From IMG/VR virus record IMGVR_UViG_3300047274_000223: a stretch of DNA of 64,000 nucleotides; one strand, written 5' to 3'. Under the pieces are notes generated by a model, which did no database searches, was not told the DNA's origin, and saw only the letters and a program-made list of their open reading frames with translations. Below are positions 6,010-42,837 of the stretch, piece after piece. How positions within the stretch are numbered: position 1 is the stretch's first letter; each line of letters opens with the position of its first letter. Made by a program: the position numbers and the translations under genes. Source of the DNA: a virus.

Positions 6010-6096
6010 TTAGTTTAGTGTAGCAATATAAAGTTGTGCTTCTTGAAGTCTCCTCTGTTTGAGGATTTGCTGACGGATAACATTCAACCAATTCAT
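6010..6096 (-). CDS. 28-aa peptide resembling the N-terminal part of cyanophage DUF4278-type peptides
   Basis: MNWLNVIRQQILKQRRLQEAQLYIATLN; AAGGAGG RBS; ATGA overlap with upstream ORF. Confidence 0.6.
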   Translation of the reverse strand: MNWLNVIRQQILKQRRLQEAQLYIATLN

Positions 6097-6254
6097 TGTG
6101 TTACCTCCTTGTTATTGTTACAAGGACGATAAGCAACACCACGATATGTATTAGTTGGATGTGCTGGTGCATGTGTTTGTGAATACCAGTGCTGATATTC
6201 TTGCTTTGGTGTTTCAGTATCGTACTTTACACCACGGTAGGTTGCTTGTGACAT
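6093..6254 (-). CDS. DUF4278-family (YRG motif) small protein
   Basis: MSQATYRGVKYD...TNTYRGVAYRP, two YRG motifs; AAGGAG RBS; directly downstream of glutamine aptamers. Confidence 0.8.
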   Translation of the reverse strand: MSQATYRGVKYDTETPKQEYQHWYSQTHAPAHPTNTYRGVAYRPCNNNKEVTQ

Positions 6255-6285
6255 TAGGGTTCTCCTTAAGTGTTAGATTAAAGAG

Positions 6286-6457
6286 CGTTCCTTCAGTCGG
6301 CTTTTGCGTCTATCTTACATTCTTTTCTTGTCATTTGTTTGACCTCCCAGACAATATTATTCTTCTGTTGAAGTGATAGTTCTGGGTGTGTCATCACTCT
6401 ACCAACAATAAATTGTGCTTGGAGACAAGTTAATAAGAGTGCTTCCATAGATGAACG
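6286..6457 (-). ncRNA. glutamine riboswitch aptamer 2 (Downstream-peptide/glnA type) with a 133-nt P2 loop
   Basis: CGTTCA-TCTAT...ATAGA-CGCAAAAG-CCGA-CT-GAAGGAACG. Confidence 0.75.
6293..6448 (-). CDS. 51-aa hypothetical protein nested inside riboswitch aptamer 2
   Basis: MEALLLTCLQAQFIVGRVMTHPELSLQQKNNIVWEVKQMTRKECKIDAKAD; an in-frame upstream ATG at 6490 is also possible. Confidence 0.6.
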   Translation of the reverse strand: MEALLLTCLQAQFIVGRVMTHPELSLQQKNNIVWEVKQMTRKECKIDAKAD

Positions 6458-6460
6458 ATC

Positions 6461-6505
6461 CGTTCCGAGTCGGCTTACTTCCGTCTGCATTATAGCAGAT
6501 GAACG
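6461..6505 (-). ncRNA. glutamine riboswitch aptamer 1 (glnA type)
   Basis: CGTTCA-TCTGC-tataat-GCAGA-CGGAAGTAAG-CCGA-CT-CGGAACG. Confidence 0.8.
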
Positions 6506-6529
6506 TAAAATATATAGTGAAAATCTTTT

Positions 6530-6543
6530 GTAAAATGTGATAC
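6530..6543 (-). promoter_or_regulatory. NtcA binding site (GTA-N8-TAC)
   Basis: GTATCACATTTTAC, about 25-38 nt upstream of aptamer 1, overlapping the expected -35 region. Confidence 0.7.
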
Positions 6544-6547
6544 CAAA

Positions 6548-6718
6548 TTAATGTTTTCTTAGTGTTTGCAAGTATTCTATGACATGCCACCTGATTCCCA
6601 TCAATTCATTGTAGCATTTTTGATCATGTGCTTGTTGTCTTAGATCTGAATCTGGTTTGTAAATACTTTCAATGAATAGGTCTAGACCGTTATTCCATTT
6701 GTCGTCGTTGTTAGTCAC
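6548..6718 (-). CDS. 56-aa hypothetical protein (GTG start)
   Basis: Manual translation MTNNDDKWNNGLDLFIESIYKPDSDLRQQAHDQKCYNELMGIRWHVIEYLQTLRKH. Confidence 0.6.
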   Translation of the reverse strand: MTNNDDKWNNGLDLFIESIYKPDSDLRQQAHDQKCYNELMGIRWHVIEYLQTLRKH

Positions 6719-33316: not shown

Positions 33317-33390
33317 GTCTCAGTAGCTCAGATGGATAGAGCATCTGCCTTCTAAGCAGTTGGTCGGGGGTTCGAGTCCCTCCTGAGACG
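33317..33390 (+). tRNA. tRNA-Arg(TCT)
   Basis: Cloverleaf; anticodon loop CTTCTAA; GTTCGAG T-loop. Confidence 0.92.
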
Positions 33391-33409
33391 CCTTATTGAA
33401 CTATTCGTT

Positions 33410-33655
33410 ATGAAAAAACCTACTGTTATTATGGAGCGGTTTCCTTACCGCTATATTCAAGTTGGAATGCTTGAGATCAATGGCAAACCCGATTGCCGTA
33501 TTCAAAAAGTTGATTCCTACACTGGACGTTACCGAGATATGTATCTCTGTGACAATGAATCTCAAATGCTCCTAGCAATAGAAGACTTTGAGTATACTAA
33601 ATGGTTGGATCCAGACACGGTTCCATGTTATGTAAAAGGAGACGACGATGATTGA
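33410..33655 (+). CDS. conserved cyanophage hypothetical protein
   Basis: ERFPYRYIQVG..NGKPDCRIQK..YRDMYLCDN. Confidence 0.75.
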   Translation: MKKPTVIMERFPYRYIQVGMLEINGKPDCRIQKVDSYTGRYRDMYLCDNESQMLLAIEDFEYTKWLDPDTVPCYVKGDDDD

Positions 33656-33941
33656 CACAGTGAAATATCAATTAGAACGTGCTGAAGATGCACTTCGAAC
33701 AGCAATGAAACTGGGAGCAGAAACAGAAGATCCTTATCTTCTTAAAAATATTGCAGAAGTAATTAATACAATTAGTGGGTGGCAAAATAGTTATAGATAT
33801 AATGTAACTAAATTAACTACAGATGAGGGAATTAAATTTGATTTCACTTCCACTCAATATGGACTAGATGAGCTGCCTTACAGTTATATTTCTAGTGGAG
33901 TAAGAGGTGGAATGAGTGATGATATCATCACTTTCAGTTAG
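33648..33941 (+). CDS. hypothetical protein
   Basis: AAAGGAG RBS, 97 codons. Confidence 0.65.
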   Translation: MIDTVKYQLERAEDALRTAMKLGAETEDPYLLKNIAEVINTISGWQNSYRYNVTKLTTDEGIKFDFTSTQYGLDELPYSYISSGVRGGMSDDIITFS

Positions 33942-34155
33942 TCACGGAAAGACTTAAAAAGTACTGGTGGAGTCAATGACCCAAACTGTCTCGGGATGAC
34001 ATTAAAAGCGCCCTGGTCGGGTGATCCCCCTTCACGAGTTTCCAGTTTCTCTCAAAAACTGGTGGTGCGGATGGGGTAACTCCCGCCGAGATTCCTATTT
34101 ACTCGATAATTAAATAGGTGGCGTGCATGTGCTCGGGAGGATTGACCTCCTCCCA
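33940..34155 (+). ncRNA. large structured cyanophage RNA resembling the manA RNA motif (3' part could be called wcaG-like)
   Basis: Non-coding, GC-rich, multiple hairpins; GTCACGGAAAGAC..CTGGTGGAGTCA..GGTGGTGCGGATGGG..CCCGCC..GGTGGCGTGC recalled from these motifs. Confidence 0.5.
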
Positions 34156-34158
34156 CAA

Positions 34159-34240
34159 GTCGGTATGGCGGAATTGGTAGACGCGCTGGGTTTAGGTTCC
34201 AGTGAAGTAATTCGTGGAGGTTCAAGTCCTCTTACCGACA
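34159..34240 (+). tRNA. tRNA-Leu(TAG)
   Basis: Long variable arm; loop TTTAGGT; GTTCAAG. Confidence 0.9.
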
Positions 34241-34370
34241 TTGGTAGTCCTTAGCGATTAACTAAGTAGACGCCAAATGTAGGTGCCAAAACCGCTCCTC
34301 ATCCCTAGTATTCTGTGGGTGAGTGAATGTAAAGAGTGGGGACATAGGTAAAGTCCCCAACACCTACCAC
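34241..34370 (+). ncRNA. unassigned structured RNA between tRNAs
   Basis: CTTAG/CTAAG, GTAGGTG/CACCTAC, CTCATCC/GGGTGAG and TGGGGAC/GTCCCCA stems. Confidence 0.45.
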
Positions 34371-34373
34371 AAT

Positions 34374-34445
34374 CCTCTGTTAGTCTATTGGTAAAGACGG
34401 GTGGACAACACACATAGAAACTGGGTTCGATTCCCAGCCAGAGGT
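34374..34445 (+). ncRNA. tRNA-like element with atypical anticodon arm (CAA)
   Basis: CCTCTG/CAGAGG acceptor, GTCT/AGAC D arm, CTGGG-TTCGATT-CCCAG T arm; loop GACAACA lacks U33. Confidence 0.6.
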
Positions 34446-34494
34446 AAATAACACCCCCTATGCCTCTCAACGATGCACAAACCTGGGGGTCACT

Positions 34495-34566
34495 GCGGAG
34501 TTAGTTCAGCGGTAGAACGCTATCCTTCCAAGTTAGATGTCGTCGGTTCGATTCCGATACTCCGCT
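34495..34566 (+). tRNA. tRNA-Gly(TCC)
   Basis: Cloverleaf; loop CTTCCAA. Confidence 0.9.
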
Positions 34567-34588
34567 CTTATCCATTGAGGATAAATTT

Positions 34589-34744
34589 ATGTCACTTATT
34601 TCAAAAGCAGACAGAGACTTGGCACTGGAAGCACTTGATTTTTATCTTTTTAATAAACAGCATGATCTCACTGACGAAAAAAGAATGGAACTCAATGCCC
34701 TTGCCAACTGGATCAGATTGGAAAATTTCAAACATGAAAATTAA
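34589..34744 (+). CDS. 51-aa hypothetical protein
   Basis: GAGG RBS; MSLISKADRDLALEALDFY... Confidence 0.65.
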   Translation: MSLISKADRDLALEALDFYLFNKQHDLTDEKRMELNALANWIRLENFKHEN

Positions 34745-34904
34745 TCTATGGTATTGTACTCATATGCAACAGTGGAGATGGACACTTATAGATGATCATC
34801 GCCCTGTAGTTCGTCAAGAAAGTGGTCAACAACCACACTTGCGTGATGCTATGAATGATATTGCTAATACTGTAGAATACATGATGGACTGTAGACAGTC
34901 CTGA
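34734..34904 (+). CDS. 56-aa conserved hypothetical protein
   Basis: MKINLWYCTHMQQWRWTL..QESG..LRDAMNDIANTVEY. Confidence 0.7.
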   Translation: MKINLWYCTHMQQWRWTLIDDHRPVVRQESGQQPHLRDAMNDIANTVEYMMDCRQS

Positions 34905-34910
34905 TTTTAT

Positions 34911-34982
34911 TGCCTAGTAGCTCAGCGGTAGAGCTATCGACTGTTAATCGATTGGTCCCTGGTTCGATCCCAGGCTGGGCAG
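34911..34982 (+). tRNA. tRNA-Asn(GTT)
   Basis: ATCGA-CTGTTAA-TCGAT anticodon arm. Confidence 0.92.
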
Positions 34983-35002
34983 TTTTTATAGAGGAGGTCA
35001 GC

Positions 35003-35197
35003 ATGTACGAACATCAAACGGATTTTGAGGTTGTTCTGCTTGACTTCGGTAAGAAAGTCGAGTATATTCTTGCTGCAGAGATGGCAGGCAAGACCAATGC
35101 TGATGATGCTTACAAACAAATCAAAGAATTATTTGAGCATGTTAAGAAGTTTCGTAAGAAAGAAAAGAAACAAGACCATCCCCTTGACTTTGATTAG
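35003..35197 (+). CDS. conserved hypothetical protein
   Basis: GGAGG RBS; MYEHQTDFEVVLLDFGKKVEYI. Confidence 0.7.
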   Translation: MYEHQTDFEVVLLDFGKKVEYILAAEMAGKTNADDAYKQIKELFEHVKKFRKKEKKQDHPLDFD

Positions 35198-35321
35198 ACA
35201 ATGTTCCAAGTGTGAGATCGAGAAACCTCTTGACAGCGACCACTACCAGGTGGTAAGATCGTTCCGTAGTGGGTTTTCCTACTATTGTAATGAGTGTAAC
35301 AAACCCAAACCCAGAGACTAA
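35190..35321 (+). CDS. small CxxC..CxxC zinc-finger protein (start uncertain)
   Basis: CSKC..YYCNEC. Confidence 0.55.
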   Translation: MIRQCSKCEIEKPLDSDHYQVVRSFRSGFSYYCNECNKPKPRD

Positions 35322-35323
35322 CT

Positions 35324-35578
35324 ATGATTCGCGTGAAAATTGATCTTGAACCATATGGTATGACCATTGGTGGTAAACAACTTGCAGAGATTCGTATTTG
35401 GAATTCTACTGGTAGAGGATATACCAGCAAGCATAATTATGAATATGAAATGATGGAACCAAATCCTCTTGCAGGCGATCCTGTCATGTGCCGTGGTAGT
35501 ATTAGCGGATACGATAGAAAGCAACCAGTTTTAAATCTTGTCATGGAAGCCTTACAGGATGCACTTGACAAACCGTAA
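35324..35578 (+). CDS. hypothetical protein
   Basis: 84-codon ORF. Confidence 0.6.
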   Translation: MIRVKIDLEPYGMTIGGKQLAEIRIWNSTGRGYTSKHNYEYEMMEPNPLAGDPVMCRGSISGYDRKQPVLNLVMEALQDALDKP

Positions 35579-35593
35579 TATTTCCTATATACT
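35565..35593 (+). promoter_or_regulatory. sigma70 promoter of hli cluster
   Basis: TTGACA-N17-TATACT. Confidence 0.8.
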
Positions 35594-35619
35594 ATTGTTG
35601 TAATTCTTTACAAATCTAG

Positions 35620-35823
35620 ATGACTGTTACAAGCAACGAATTTGGTCAACAAAATATGTGGGCGAAAGAGCCTGAAATGGTTTACCAAGAATACTCACGC
35701 AAGGGTCTATTGACTCCTATGCAAATGACGGAGATGTACAATGGACGCTGGGCTATGGTCGGCATTATTGCTGGGCTCGTTTCTTATCTTGGCACTGGTA
35801 AACTCTTCTTCGGAATCTTCTGA
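35620..35823 (+). CDS. hli: high-light-inducible protein
   Basis: EMYNGRWAMVG chlorophyll-binding motif; GKLFFGIF. Confidence 0.9.
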   Translation: MTVTSNEFGQQNMWAKEPEMVYQEYSRKGLLTPMQMTEMYNGRWAMVGIIAGLVSYLGTGKLFFGIF

Positions 35824-35851
35824 TTAACTTATTACTTAAAGGAGAACTATT

Positions 35852-35971
35852 ATGAAATTCGGATTCACCCCTGAGGCAGAGATCCTCAACGCACGTCTGG
35901 CAATGCTTGGTTTCATTGCTGGTGTAGGTGCTTATCTCACCACTGGCCAGATTATTCCTGGCATTCTCTGA
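35852..35971 (+). CDS. hli: high-light-inducible protein (39 aa)
   Basis: MKFGFTPEAEILNARLAMLGF..TGQIIPGIL; AAAGGAG RBS. Confidence 0.92.
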   Translation: MKFGFTPEAEILNARLAMLGFIAGVGAYLTTGQIIPGIL

Positions 35972-35984
35972 CAATTAATTGACA

Positions 35985-36071
35985 ATGGTAGAACTTACGT
36001 TTACAATCACTAGTGTTGCCTTCTTTGTTTTGTTGGCAATTTCAGTAGAAAAACTTTGCGAAACTTACTAA
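35985..36071 (+). CDS. 28-aa single-TM peptide
   Basis: [28 protein letters not shown]; its TAA shares a base with the petF ATG. Confidence 0.55.
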
Positions 36072-36364
36072 TGACTACTTACAATGTTACTCTCCAGTCT
36101 CCTGACGGCACCGAAACTACTTTCGAATGTACAGAGGATCAATATATTCTCGAAGCAGCCGAGGAGGCAGGTATTGATCTCCCTTCGTCGTGTCGTGCGG
36201 GTGCTTGCTCGGCTTGTGCGGGAAAACTCCTCTCTGGTACAGTAGATAACGAGGAGCAATCGTTCCTTGATGATGATCAAATTGCTGATGGGTGGGTGCT
36301 CACTTGTGTTGCTTATCCTACCAGTGATGTTAAGATCTTGACTGAGCAAGAGGAAAATCTGTGA
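36071..36364 (+). CDS. petF: 2Fe-2S ferredoxin
   Basis: [21 protein letters not shown]. Confidence 0.95.
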
Positions 36365-36555
36365 GTGCTAATATGCTAGGGCAATTTAATCTTGCCCTTC
36401 AAGAACTGGTTGATAGTGGTGCCTGGGATCGAGATGTAGAACTAGAAGTCAAGATTGCTGGCACTCTCAAGAATGACAAATTCATTGTCATCAAACCAAT
36501 TAAAGAAAGACTAATTTGTAATCCTAATCCTGAACTGAAACAAAAACATGGTTGA
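36361..36555 (+). CDS. conserved hypothetical protein
   Basis: GTG start; [17 protein letters not shown]. Confidence 0.65.
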
Positions 36556-37066
36556 AACAATTCCTGAAGTAACTCTTATCTTTCGAGAAGATGGAGAATT
36601 TATTTACACAAAGTCCACAGAATTATTTGCTGGTAAGCGAGTTGTTCTATTTGGTCTTCCTGGTGCTTTTACTCCCACATGTTCTGCATTTCAACTTCCT
36701 GGATATGATGCAGAATTTGAAAAATTTAAAACATATGGTGTAGAAGAAATCTATTGTGTAAGTGTTAATGATGCATTTGTGATGAATGCATGGGCCAAAG
36801 ATCAAAATATCAAGAATGTAAAACTGATTCCTGATGGTAATGGAGATTTTACTGATGGTATGGGTATGCTAGTACAGAAAGAAAATCTTGGATTTGGATT
36901 CCGATCCTGGAGGTATTCTGCTCTAGTGGATGATGGTAAGATCACTAAGATCTTCATTGAAGATGGTCAAGAAGATAATGCCCCATCTGATCCCTATGCC
37001 ATCTCAGATCCGTATACGATGCTGAGTCATCTGGCACACACCACAGGGATTCCGATCCCAGCCTGA
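36548..37066 (+). CDS. type II (Prx5-like) peroxiredoxin
   Basis: PGAFTPTCS, SVNDAFVMNAW, DGNG, RSWRY. Confidence 0.9.
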   Translation: MVETIPEVTLIFREDGEFIYTKSTELFAGKRVVLFGLPGAFTPTCSAFQLPGYDAEFEKFKTYGVEEIYCVSVNDAFVMNAWAKDQNIKNVKLIPDGNGDFTDGMGMLVQKENLGFGFRSWRYSALVDDGKITKIFIEDGQEDNAPSDPYAISDPYTMLSHLAHTTGIPIPA

Positions 37067-37070
37067 TCTC

Positions 37071-37096
37071 AAGGAGTCTTACGAGACTCCTTTTTT
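37071..37096 (+). terminator. intrinsic terminator
   Basis: AAGGAGTCT-tacg-AGACTCCTT-TTTT. Confidence 0.8.
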
Positions 37097-37110
37097 ATTC
37101 TCAAAACCCC

Positions 37111-37144
37111 TTGACAGGCCAGGGCATTCGTAGTACTATAAATA
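37111..37144 (+). promoter_or_regulatory. psbA promoter: sigma70 plus overlapping late promoter
   Basis: TTGACA-N17-TACTAT overlapped by TATAAATA. Confidence 0.8.
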
Positions 37145-37182
37145 AGTGTTAAGGGATGGAAACAAATCTTAACATTCCAACA

Positions 37183-37290
37183 CCCGCTAACCGAGACCTA
37201 TGGGTGTCTAAATTACGTCTCTCATATCCCCGCTGAGGGTGCGGGGAGCATAGTAATAACCACCATTTCCCTGATGGTCTTACTACTCGA
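37183..37290 (+). ncRNA. PhotoRC-II-like RNA motif in psbA leader
   Basis: CCGAGACC..ACGTCTCTCAT..CCCGCtgagggtGCGGG..CCATTTCCCTGATGG upstream of psbA. Confidence 0.7.
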
Positions 37291-42675: not shown

Positions 42676-42763
42676 GGAAAGGTGGTCGAGTGGTTGAAGG
42701 CTCTAGTCTTGAAAACTAGCGATGTGAAAGCATCCGTGGGTTCGAATCCCACCCTTTCCGCCA
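42676..42763 (+). tRNA. tRNA-Ser(TGA), CCA encoded
   Basis: CTAGT-CTTGAAA-ACTAG; long variable arm. Confidence 0.93.
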
Positions 42764-42837
42764 CGGGATGTAGCTCAGTTTGGTAGAGCACTCGCTTTGG
42801 GAGCGAGGGGCCGTAGGTTCGAATCCTATCATCCCGA
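42764..42837 (+). tRNA. tRNA-Pro(TGG)
   Basis: CTCGC-TTTGGGA-GCGAG. Confidence 0.93.

Follow-up and report, generated by a model that had tools for sequence, protein, structure and literature searches.

A protein-coding gene in a hairpin of a putative nested glutamine riboswitch from a T4-like cyanophage

We examined a 64,000-nt stretch of viral DNA (the window) from the IMG/VR record IMGVR_UViG_3300047274_000223, and all coordinates refer to it. The source is a T4-like cyanophage. Its nearest records are myoviruses of freshwater or estuarine Synechococcus, and one of these, DSL-LC03, is 90% identical over the locus of interest. On the minus strand, positions 6505-6286 read directly as two units of the glnA type of glutamine riboswitch, and a gene with a DUF4278 domain lies downstream (Table 1). 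The first unit has a short hairpin, P1a(1). In the second unit, the corresponding hairpin, P1a(2), encloses a 51-codon open reading frame (ORF). The ATG of this nested ORF (6448-6446) lies within the 5' arm of P1a(2), and its TGA (6295-6293) lies within the core of the riboswitch, in CCGAC-UGA-AGGAACG. The last six codons and the stop coincide with the 3' arm of P1a(2), a joining strand, and the 3' strand of another helix, P3. The initial annotation of this DNA had described the two units, the ORF with its start in the hairpin arm and its stop in the core, and a C-terminus (IDAKAD) that is encoded by the aptamer. The layout that it gave for the units is exact, the ORF agrees with the sequence, and IDAKAD is encoded by the 3' arm of P1a(2) and the core.

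We scanned IMG/VR for the junction between the two units and parsed 128 cyanophage loci. The second unit is long (160-230 nt) in 93 of these loci and short in the other 35. The ORF-bearing layout is thus found in ~70% of the parsed double units (93/128), and it spans phages of freshwater Synechococcus to phages of Prochlorococcus. Among the 93 ORF-bearing loci, the first ATG follows the C of CGTTCA by 9-11 nt in all but one (92/93), and 85 have their stop, either TGA or TAA, at one and the same triplet of the core. The distance from ATG to stop is divisible by three in 89 of 91 distinct inserts, which have 16 different lengths. Because the same layout recurs at 93 of 128 loci, with a conserved start, stop, and frame, it is not due to chance. 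The entropy by codon position is ordered 3>1>2 in each length class. The ratio of nonsynonymous to synonymous substitution rates (dN/dS), as compared to the closest relatives, is 0.31 and 0.47. Homologs were found by tblastn in P-SSM2, P-SSM5, Syn19, Syn2, S-SSM7, ACG-2014d, S-SRM01, and DSL-LC02/03. A dN/dS below 1, cyanophage homologs, and conserved aptamer halves on either side of the ORF (see below) had all been put forward as checks in the initial annotation, and all are borne out. From these comparisons of sequences, we conclude that the nested ORF is a real protein-coding gene.

Three other views of the insert can be set aside. First, the 133-nt insert is not a structured RNA domain: its folding z-score is -1.0, which is not unusual, and the codon evidence points to coding. 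Second, we rejected an upstream ATG at 6490, which would give a 65-aa ORF, as the start, because it falls within the P1a(1) loop, which is variable, and relatives do not share it. Third, the product does not look like a regulatory leader peptide of the attenuator or mgtL type, as it has a predicted fold, two invariant cysteines, a dN/dS below 1, and a free-standing homolog.

The nested gene encodes a mini-protein in which C8 and C44 are invariant. AlphaFold2 predicts a two-helix hairpin (predicted local distance difference test score, 85.8), and the confidence falls at the last residues, which are those dictated by the RNA core. Residues 6-49 match positions 10-52 (of 53) of phrog_504 (E = 1.7e-6). 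This is a cyanophage family, and its annotated homologs Syn19_187 and SSSM7_289 bear the note "T4-LIKE GC: 430". With a 75-sequence profile, we found 1,157 metagenomic protein clusters at E <= 1e-3; their named sources say "hypothetical protein" and none has a Pfam domain. The search for a function gave no Pfam match, no sequence match in PDB, no significant fold match, and no named match in the protein atlas. The free-standing homolog is from S-CAM7 (L007:471-650). It is distant (hhalign probability 92%), and there are no aptamer halves around it. The sole glnA-like match in S-CAM7 is ~27 kb away and is sub-threshold (26.3 bits).

An ORF with two cysteines (61-68 aa) is also present within the first hairpin, P1a(1), of 26 relatives. 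Both hairpins of the nested riboswitch are therefore able to house genes, although P1a(1) of the present element does not contain one. These ORFs lie upstream of the CGCAAGUA of unit 1, as in loci L010, L117, L128, L150, L166, L169, L178, and others; one example product is MLSILLALTLAHH...SCERF...GQC.

The RNA still folds around the nested gene, as judged by covariation between the arms of P1a(2). Across 66 distinct combinations of arms, the five positions of this stem are paired in 65, 65, 65, 66, and 55 combinations, with CG, UA, UG, and AU variants. The compensatory sets include UCUAU/AUAGA, UCCCA/UGGGA, UCCUA/UAGGA, UCCUC/GAGGA, UCCUU/AAGGA, and UCUUA/UAAGA. None of 10,000 shuffled pairings equaled the observed value. 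The loop is kept closed across 130-190 nt in the relatives. Because the 3' arm must pair with the start region, the residue before the final Asp varies (Ile, Trp, and others). In P1a(1), all four pairs show covariation among the relatives.

Given an RNA that tolerates inserts, the ORF could be a passive hitchhiker. Loop length in the hairpins of this riboswitch is free to vary among the relatives, and an ORF in such a loop would gain only co-transcription from a nitrogen-responsive early promoter. Its start and stop would overlap the aptamer for compactness, its translation would play no part in regulation, and the riboswitch would control the DUF4278 gene alone. The free-standing homolog in S-CAM7 fits with this idea, as does a relative (L067) with its own Shine-Dalgarno (SD) sequence inside the loop. 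The UGA or UAA of the core is present in ORF-free relatives too, which suggests that the stop was found, not built. Furthermore, in 6 of the 93 relatives, the stop comes 15-18 nt sooner, within the 3' arm or immediately ahead of it, so the C-terminal tail is dispensable. But the start is not free to drift: the AUG is held 9-11 nt from the P1 strand, within the stem, in the 92 loci mentioned above. An SD-like GGAG precedes the nested ATG at the junction in 59 of the 93 ORF-bearing loci and in 0 of the 35 ORF-free loci. A hitchhiker would also be hard to reconcile with the persistence of the layout from freshwater Synechococcus phages to Prochlorococcus phages or with the ORFs in the other hairpin of 26 relatives. 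Finally, to translate the ORF, a ribosome has to open P1a(2), P3, and the outer P1, which makes neutrality physically hard. Overall, we consider a hitchhiking ORF to be unlikely.

How do the two units compare to known glutamine riboswitches? In an Rfam scan of positions 6150-6650, unit 1 matched RF01739 (glnA) at 35.9 bits, just above the gathering score of 35. The ORF-bearing unit 2 had no match to RF01739, even at E <= 10, and neither did the full outer core; the 133-nt insert is the reason. Scores for RF01704 (Downstream-peptide) were sub-threshold (18-28 bits). The initial annotation had named both of these Rfam families as models to run. We judged the effect of the insert by comparison with natural insert-free relatives. 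Once the interior of the ORF is masked, the element and the insert-free riboswitches of S-CREM1 and S-PM2 can be aligned at every base; the second units of these two phages score 33.3-33.5 bits for RF01739. The S-CREM1 element was annotated by its authors as glnA (44 bits over 99 nt; PMC9964418). Across the insert-free relatives, second units score 31-40 bits. The best Rfam alignment for the insert-free relatives is to neither unit. Instead, it joins the 5' half of unit 1 to the 3' half of unit 2 around a local insertion of 46-48 nt (42.9 and 40.3 bits; the range for this outer alignment is 40.3-42.9 bits).

This outer combination has these parts of the glnA consensus: P1 (CGUUC/GAACG; 6505-6501/6290-6286), a hairpin after an unpaired A (6499-6484), and the E-loop strands CGGAAGUA (6483-6476) and GAAGG (6294-6290). 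The two consensus halves of the E-loop occur together only in the outer combination, and each single unit lacks one half. The initial annotation was right that the two units are homologous, but it read them as aptamers in tandem. Covariation in P1, in P3, and in a long-range pair indicates a nested double core, in which the outer strands of the two units pair with each other and the inner strands form a junction hairpin.

We collected P1 haplotypes from IMG/VR with a 3'-anchored scan and a variant scan, and we counted pairs in 31 insert-free relatives. At the innermost pair of P1, we found four haplotypes: C,G,C,G; C,C,G,G; U,G,C,A; and U,C,G,A (the order is 5' strand and 3' strand of unit 1, then of unit 2). 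The only pairs that are Watson-Crick in all four haplotypes are 5'(1):3'(2) and 3'(1):5'(2), and a side-by-side P1 is broken in three. P1 positions A56 and A57 have zero variants in IMG/VR, so it is only the innermost pair of P1 that informs the topology. The junction hairpin, whose P1 sequence is identical to that of the outer P1, shows a compensatory change to CAACG/CGUUG among relatives.

In crystal structures of glutamine riboswitches, a long-range pair (G23:C60) closes P1 (PMC6212724, PMC6698751). The corresponding bases of the two units (X1, Y1, X2, and Y2 in Table 1) have two haplotypes, C,G,C,G and G,G,C,C, the latter in the present element. X1:Y2 and X2:Y1 are the only combinations that can pair in both haplotypes. 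For the present element, this means G6481:C6285 and C6306:G6460 in the nested arrangement, as opposed to G.G and C.C for side-by-side units. In the 31 insert-free relatives, X1:Y2 is paired in 100% (20 CG and 11 GC) and X2:Y1 is C:G in 31/31, while the side-by-side model gives 64.5% pairing at both long-range pairs.

Helix P3 tells the same story. The bases that follow AAGUA in unit 1 are complementary to those that precede GAAGG in unit 2 (AGUCG/CGACU, AGUCA/UGACU, or GGUCG/CGACU), position 8 varies as U:A, G:C, or A:U, and these cross-unit pairs covary. In 5,000 shuffles, 0 trials equaled the observed pairing. In S-SRM01, the last U of P3 has changed to G, with loss of the stop codon, and its partner has changed from A to C, which is compensatory. 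The local mini-hairpins of single units are not maintained: pairing in local P3 stems is just 61-66% in the insert-free relatives. Also, there is just one anti-SD/SD platform. Together, the P1 haplotypes, the poor local P3 stems, and the single platform lead us to reject a side-by-side tandem of two complete aptamers, each with its own P1 and platform. Sequence comparison shows how the element is laid out, that the ORF is coding, and that every helix is conserved and covaries. That the element comprises a canonical outer glnA three-way junction plus an inner core, and that these share helix P3, is well supported but not proven.

Table 1. Features of the riboswitch locus and the downstream genes (window coordinates)
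Feature	Position	Strand	Details
Unit 1	6505-6461	-	CGTTCA-TCTGC-TATAAT-GCAGA-CGGAAGTAAGCCGACTC-GGAACG; followed by a GAT (GAU) linker
Unit 2	6457-6286	-	CGTTCA-TCTAT-[133 nt, 6446-6314]-ATAGA-CGCAAAAGCCGAC-TGA-AGGAACG
Outer P1, 5' strand	6501-6505	-	CGUUC, then A6500; innermost base covaries with the 6290-6286 strand in relatives (C:G to U:A)
First hairpin, P1a(1)	6484-6499	-	UCUGC-UAUAAU-GCAGA; from the Rfam alignment; insert-free in this phage
Outer joining strand	6476-6483	-	CGGAAGUA, the 5' half of the consensus glnA E-loop; agrees with Rfam consensus; X1 = G6481, the long-range "linchpin" base
Shared helix P3, 5' strand	6468-6475	-	AGCCGACU; partner is 6302-6295
Junction hairpin (P1 of inner core)	6453-6465	-	GAACG-GAU-CGUUC; in the minimum free energy (MFE) fold; loop base Y1 = G6460
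P1a(2), 5' arm	6447-6451	-	UCUAU; partner is 6313-6309; includes the A and U of the nested start codon
P1a(2), 3' arm	6309-6313	-	AUAGA; covaries with the 5' arm; encodes Ile-Asp(1-2)
Inner-core joining strand	6303-6308	-	CGCAAA; same in insert-free relatives; X2 = C6306
Shared helix P3, 3' strand	6295-6302	-	AGCCGACU; last U is the first base of the nested stop codon
E-loop, 3' half	6294-6291	-	GAAG; consensus glnA 3' half
Outer P1, 3' strand	6290-6286	-	GAACG; consensus glnA 3' half
Nested gene	6448-6293	-	51 codons and TGA; two-Cys mini-protein; phrog_504
Expression platform of the DUF4278 gene	6262-6285	-	Y2 = C6285; anti-SD CUCUUUAA, 6285-6278; loop; SD UUAAGGAG, 6269-6262
DUF4278 gene (YRG, IF17-like)	6093-6254	-	53 aa; PF14105 at 25.5 bits (cut-off 25.3); phrog_5049
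28-aa ORF (MNWLNVIRQQ...)	6010-6096	-	overlaps the DUF4278 stop by ATGA (6096-6093); phrog_545, E = 6e-5; same small operon

Might the inner core be degenerate? Only the outer core, or neither, would then bind glutamine, and P1a(2) and the junction hairpin would act as a plain translational operator or as a stability element. The inner core has no E-loop; where CGGAAGUA might be expected, its joining strand is CGCAAA. Also, the stem that closes the 133-nt loop is just 5 bp long, and many of the insert-free second units have sub-threshold scores for RF01739 (31-35 bits). However, CGC and the G that follows it are how the glutamine-II riboswitch forms the same pocket (PMC6698751). The C6306:G6460 pair is invariant, the inner P1 is identical to the outer one, and the other positions of P1 tolerate no variation across IMG/VR. 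A degenerate inner core seems very unlikely to us.

Downstream of the nested core, the anti-SD strand and the SD, which is a strong one, form an 8-bp hairpin in the MFE fold, and relatives have equivalent pairs such as CCUAAA/UUUAGG. This expression platform agrees with a published model (PMC6212724). As had been expected, the downstream gene belongs to DUF4278 (Table 1), and a downstream YRG motif is found in 116 of 120 relatives (83/86 with the ORF and 33/34 without). The 28-aa ORF that follows is homologous to a segment (MNTLNLIRKQI...AQI) that marine relatives have as an N-terminal fusion to the YRG protein, and phrog_545 matches both the DUF4278 protein and the product of the 28-aa ORF. 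Judging from these similarities, the two look like a split or reordered gene.

We propose that the leader (6505-6262) of this small early operon is a nested double glutamine riboswitch with a gene in P1a(2): one sensor, gated by translation, with two opposite outputs. We put the probability of this reading at roughly 55%. It builds on the published mechanism for glnA riboswitches, including the proposal for gifB (PMC6212724; PMC6698751). The outer core would comprise P1 (6505-6501/6290-6286), P1a(1), CGGAAGUA with GAAGG, and G6481:C6285; its P3 (6475-6468/6302-6295) would be capped not by a loop but by the inner core. The inner core would use the junction hairpin (6465-6453) as its P1, along with P1a(2), CGCAAA, and C6306:G6460. 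When glutamine is high, both pockets would lock the fold. The SD-like GGA that precedes the nested ATG lies partly within the loop of the junction hairpin and partly beside it, and Y1 (G6460) is part of this GGA. C6306:G6460 would then take up a base of the GGA, and the AUG would be paired, so that the nested gene would be off. At the same time, G6481:C6285 would take the first base of the anti-SD and free the SD of the DUF4278 gene, which would be on, as proposed for gifB. When glutamine is low, the fold would be loose and ribosomes would load on the nested gene. Each of these ribosomes would unwind P1a(2), P3, and the outer P1, and the RNA would not sense glutamine during its passage.

The initial annotation had argued that translation of the nested ORF and folding of the aptamer are mutually exclusive. 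The geometry supports this: a ribosome moving along 6448-6293 unwinds P1a(2), the inner joining strand, and the 3' strand of P3, and at the stop it covers the 3' strand of the outer P1. Translation and a folded sensor are therefore physically incompatible on one RNA. In a fuller version of our proposal, one RNA with two interlocked cores would repress the gene in its own hairpin and activate the IF17-like gene, ribosomes would be a second input that erases the sensor, and the two-Cys protein would be a partner in the phage's takeover of the host's nitrogen control (glutamine synthetase (GS) and PII). We offer this fuller version only tentatively.

Several observations weigh against a nested, translation-gated riboswitch. 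A covariance model that we built for the nested fold (R1; 31 insert-free relatives) aligned to just the 5' half of the present element (31.8 bits) and did not extend across the 133-nt ORF. The covariation that defines the topology reflects a few events in related phages (two long-range haplotypes and three variant P1 haplotypes), which limits the strength of the case for the nested fold. The junction type of the present element has only a weak SD-like sequence, GGA. The inner core lacks an E-loop, so its binding of glutamine is only putative. More broadly, we infer glutamine binding, the regulatory outcome, and the control of both genes. Also, a ribosome that terminates at the UGA covers the start of the anti-SD and could open the SD of the DUF4278 gene, and this would blur or reverse the reciprocity of the two outputs.

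The last point leads to another possibility, a relay by translational coupling. Glutamine would set the loading of ribosomes on the nested ORF, and termination at the UGA (6295-6293) would melt the anti-SD (6285-6278) and turn on the DUF4278 gene, so that both genes would rise and fall together. In the present element, the stop codon precedes the anti-SD strand by 8 nt and the SD by ~26 nt, distances that the footprint of a terminating ribosome can span. The position of the stop is fixed in 85 of 93 loci, and there are other signs of coupling in the operon, such as the ATGA overlap (6096-6093). Yet relatives that lack the ORF do without it, with an identical anti-SD/SD platform that is equally far from P1, and in S-SRM01, the ORF extends 5 codons further, into the anti-SD, which implies that the position of the stop is not strictly required. 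The folded state pairs both the AUG and the SD of the ORF, which predicts the opposite response to glutamine. We view a relay as quite unlikely.

The proposed nested riboswitch has much in common with the glutamine-I riboswitch (RF01739), as represented by the gifB/IF17 leader of Synechocystis (PMC6212724): the CGUUC/GAACG P1, the hairpin after A6, CGGAAGUA with GAAGG, and the long-range G:C pair by P1. As in the gifB leader, an anti-SD lies directly 3' of P1, a DUF4278 gene is downstream, and the presumed outcome is that translation turns ON. What differs is that a second core caps the third helix of the present element, the inner hairpin encloses a 51-codon gene whose start and stop are within the aptamer, and the element is borne by a phage. 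Doublets of glutamine riboswitches, with two glnA-like units per leader, have been described as "pseudo-cooperative" tandems (PMC9481103, PMC2864571). The published units are complete side-by-side riboswitches. In contrast, the units here are nested and share P3 and a single platform, and ~70% of the sampled phage examples contain an ORF. Compared to the glutamine-II riboswitch (RF01704; PMC6698751), the inner core shares the CGC and the G after a P1-like helix, the absence of an E-loop, and the link to YRG peptides. But the present element has no pseudoknot with a separate P2, and its RF01704 scores are sub-threshold, as given above.

More distant parallels are with other RNAs that couple two sensors or that house genes. 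The tandem glycine riboswitch also has two homologous ligand-binding cores that are coupled to one downstream platform. However, its aptamers lie side by side and dock by tertiary contacts, with no exchange of P1 strands, no shared helix, and no gene. In sensing leaders that contain ORFs, such as mgtL in the magnesium-responsive leader of Salmonella mgtA and the attenuation peptides, translation of the ORF competes with alternative RNA structures; these peptides are short, and it is the act of translating them that matters. The competition between translation and RNA structure is common to both, but here the product is a conserved family that is predicted to fold and that also occurs as a free-standing gene. 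In group I and group II introns, such as td of phage T4 with its I-TevI gene, an ORF lies in a loop of a functional RNA and its start region is drawn into the structure. The host RNA in that case is a ribozyme, and the nucleotides of its catalytic core are not codons. Here, the host is a 60-nt metabolite sensor and core nucleotides are reused as codons.

The initial annotation knew of no precedent for an ORF within an aptamer, and we found no published description of this layout either (Ames & Breaker 2011 is outside this comparison). In the 2022 review of tandem riboswitches, 157 doublets of glutamine riboswitches are classed as pseudo-cooperative; tandems with an intervening ORF were left out, and the word "nested" does not appear. 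These 157 doublets probably include the phage relatives that lack an insert. Neither phages nor insertions are mentioned by Klähn et al. 2018. The alignment of Weinberg et al. has ~150 gap columns in the loop of this hairpin, so it probably contains members with long loops, although they are not discussed. We regard the element as a plausible new architectural variant of the glutamine riboswitch, with a plausible mechanism.

Aptamers are usually held to be compact non-coding modules, and tandem glutamine units have been listed as independent and side by side. This element departs from both views. It is widespread in phages, and nucleotides of the aptamer form the start region, codons, and stop of a real gene. 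The helices of the aptamer remain under selection across a loop of 130-190 nt, in what is apparently a core-inside-core fold. The element is a natural setting in which to study how ribosomes compete with ligand-dependent folding of RNA, and it could explain why Rfam under-reports these units in cyanophages. The nested gene may define a new family of small proteins, with over 1,000 clusters in ocean and lake metagenomes, that is tied to nitrogen sensing in infected cyanobacteria of global importance. If the proposed mechanism is true, then the two-Cys mini-protein would be an unrecognized partner in the phage takeover of GS/PII control, and one RNA sensor would have two opposite outputs.

The core type is essentially specific to phages. 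We found 9 matches in 185,579 species genomes, several of which are on contigs of ~190 kb, the size of a cyanophage genome, or in bins of metagenome-assembled genomes, and with only these matches, we did not find host copies or an origin in the host. Three sequences of ~188-194 kb with the phage-type core (L136, L137, and L141) are filed under assemblies of Synechococcus, Prochlorococcus, and Nonlabens xiamenensis. These are probably cyanophage genomes inside bacterial assemblies or single-amplified genomes.

Marine relatives have a sigma-70-type promoter (TTGACT-17-TATAAT) whose end is just a few nucleotides upstream of the outer P1; the match is weaker in the present element. An NtcA-type box, GTA-N8-TAC (GTATCACATTTTAC; 6530-6543, minus strand), overlaps a weak -35-like TTTACA, and a -10-like TATTTT is at 6512-6507. 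GTA-N8-TAC boxes are also found upstream of the element in DSL-LC02, DSL-LC03, S-CREM1, and S-PM2.

A few relatives have other insertions. L165 has ~60 additional nt (...CGTCGCTG-AAAAA-TCACTCTAAT) between the 3' strand of unit 1 and the 5' strand of unit 2, which would give the junction hairpin a large loop. L158, L184, and L194 have the same upstream sequence where unit 1 would be. The expression platform of L010, L017, L055, L061, L117, and L164 contains an additional conserved module of ~25 nt, ACGGAUCC-stem-GNRA-like loop-stem-GAGAAGGUU, which follows the outer P1 and precedes the DUF4278 SD.

Elsewhere in the window, Rfam identified other features on the plus strand within 33317-37261 and 42676-42837: a wcaG RNA (34034-34132), an abiF small RNA (34454-34490), PhotoRC-II (37170-37261), and six tRNAs.

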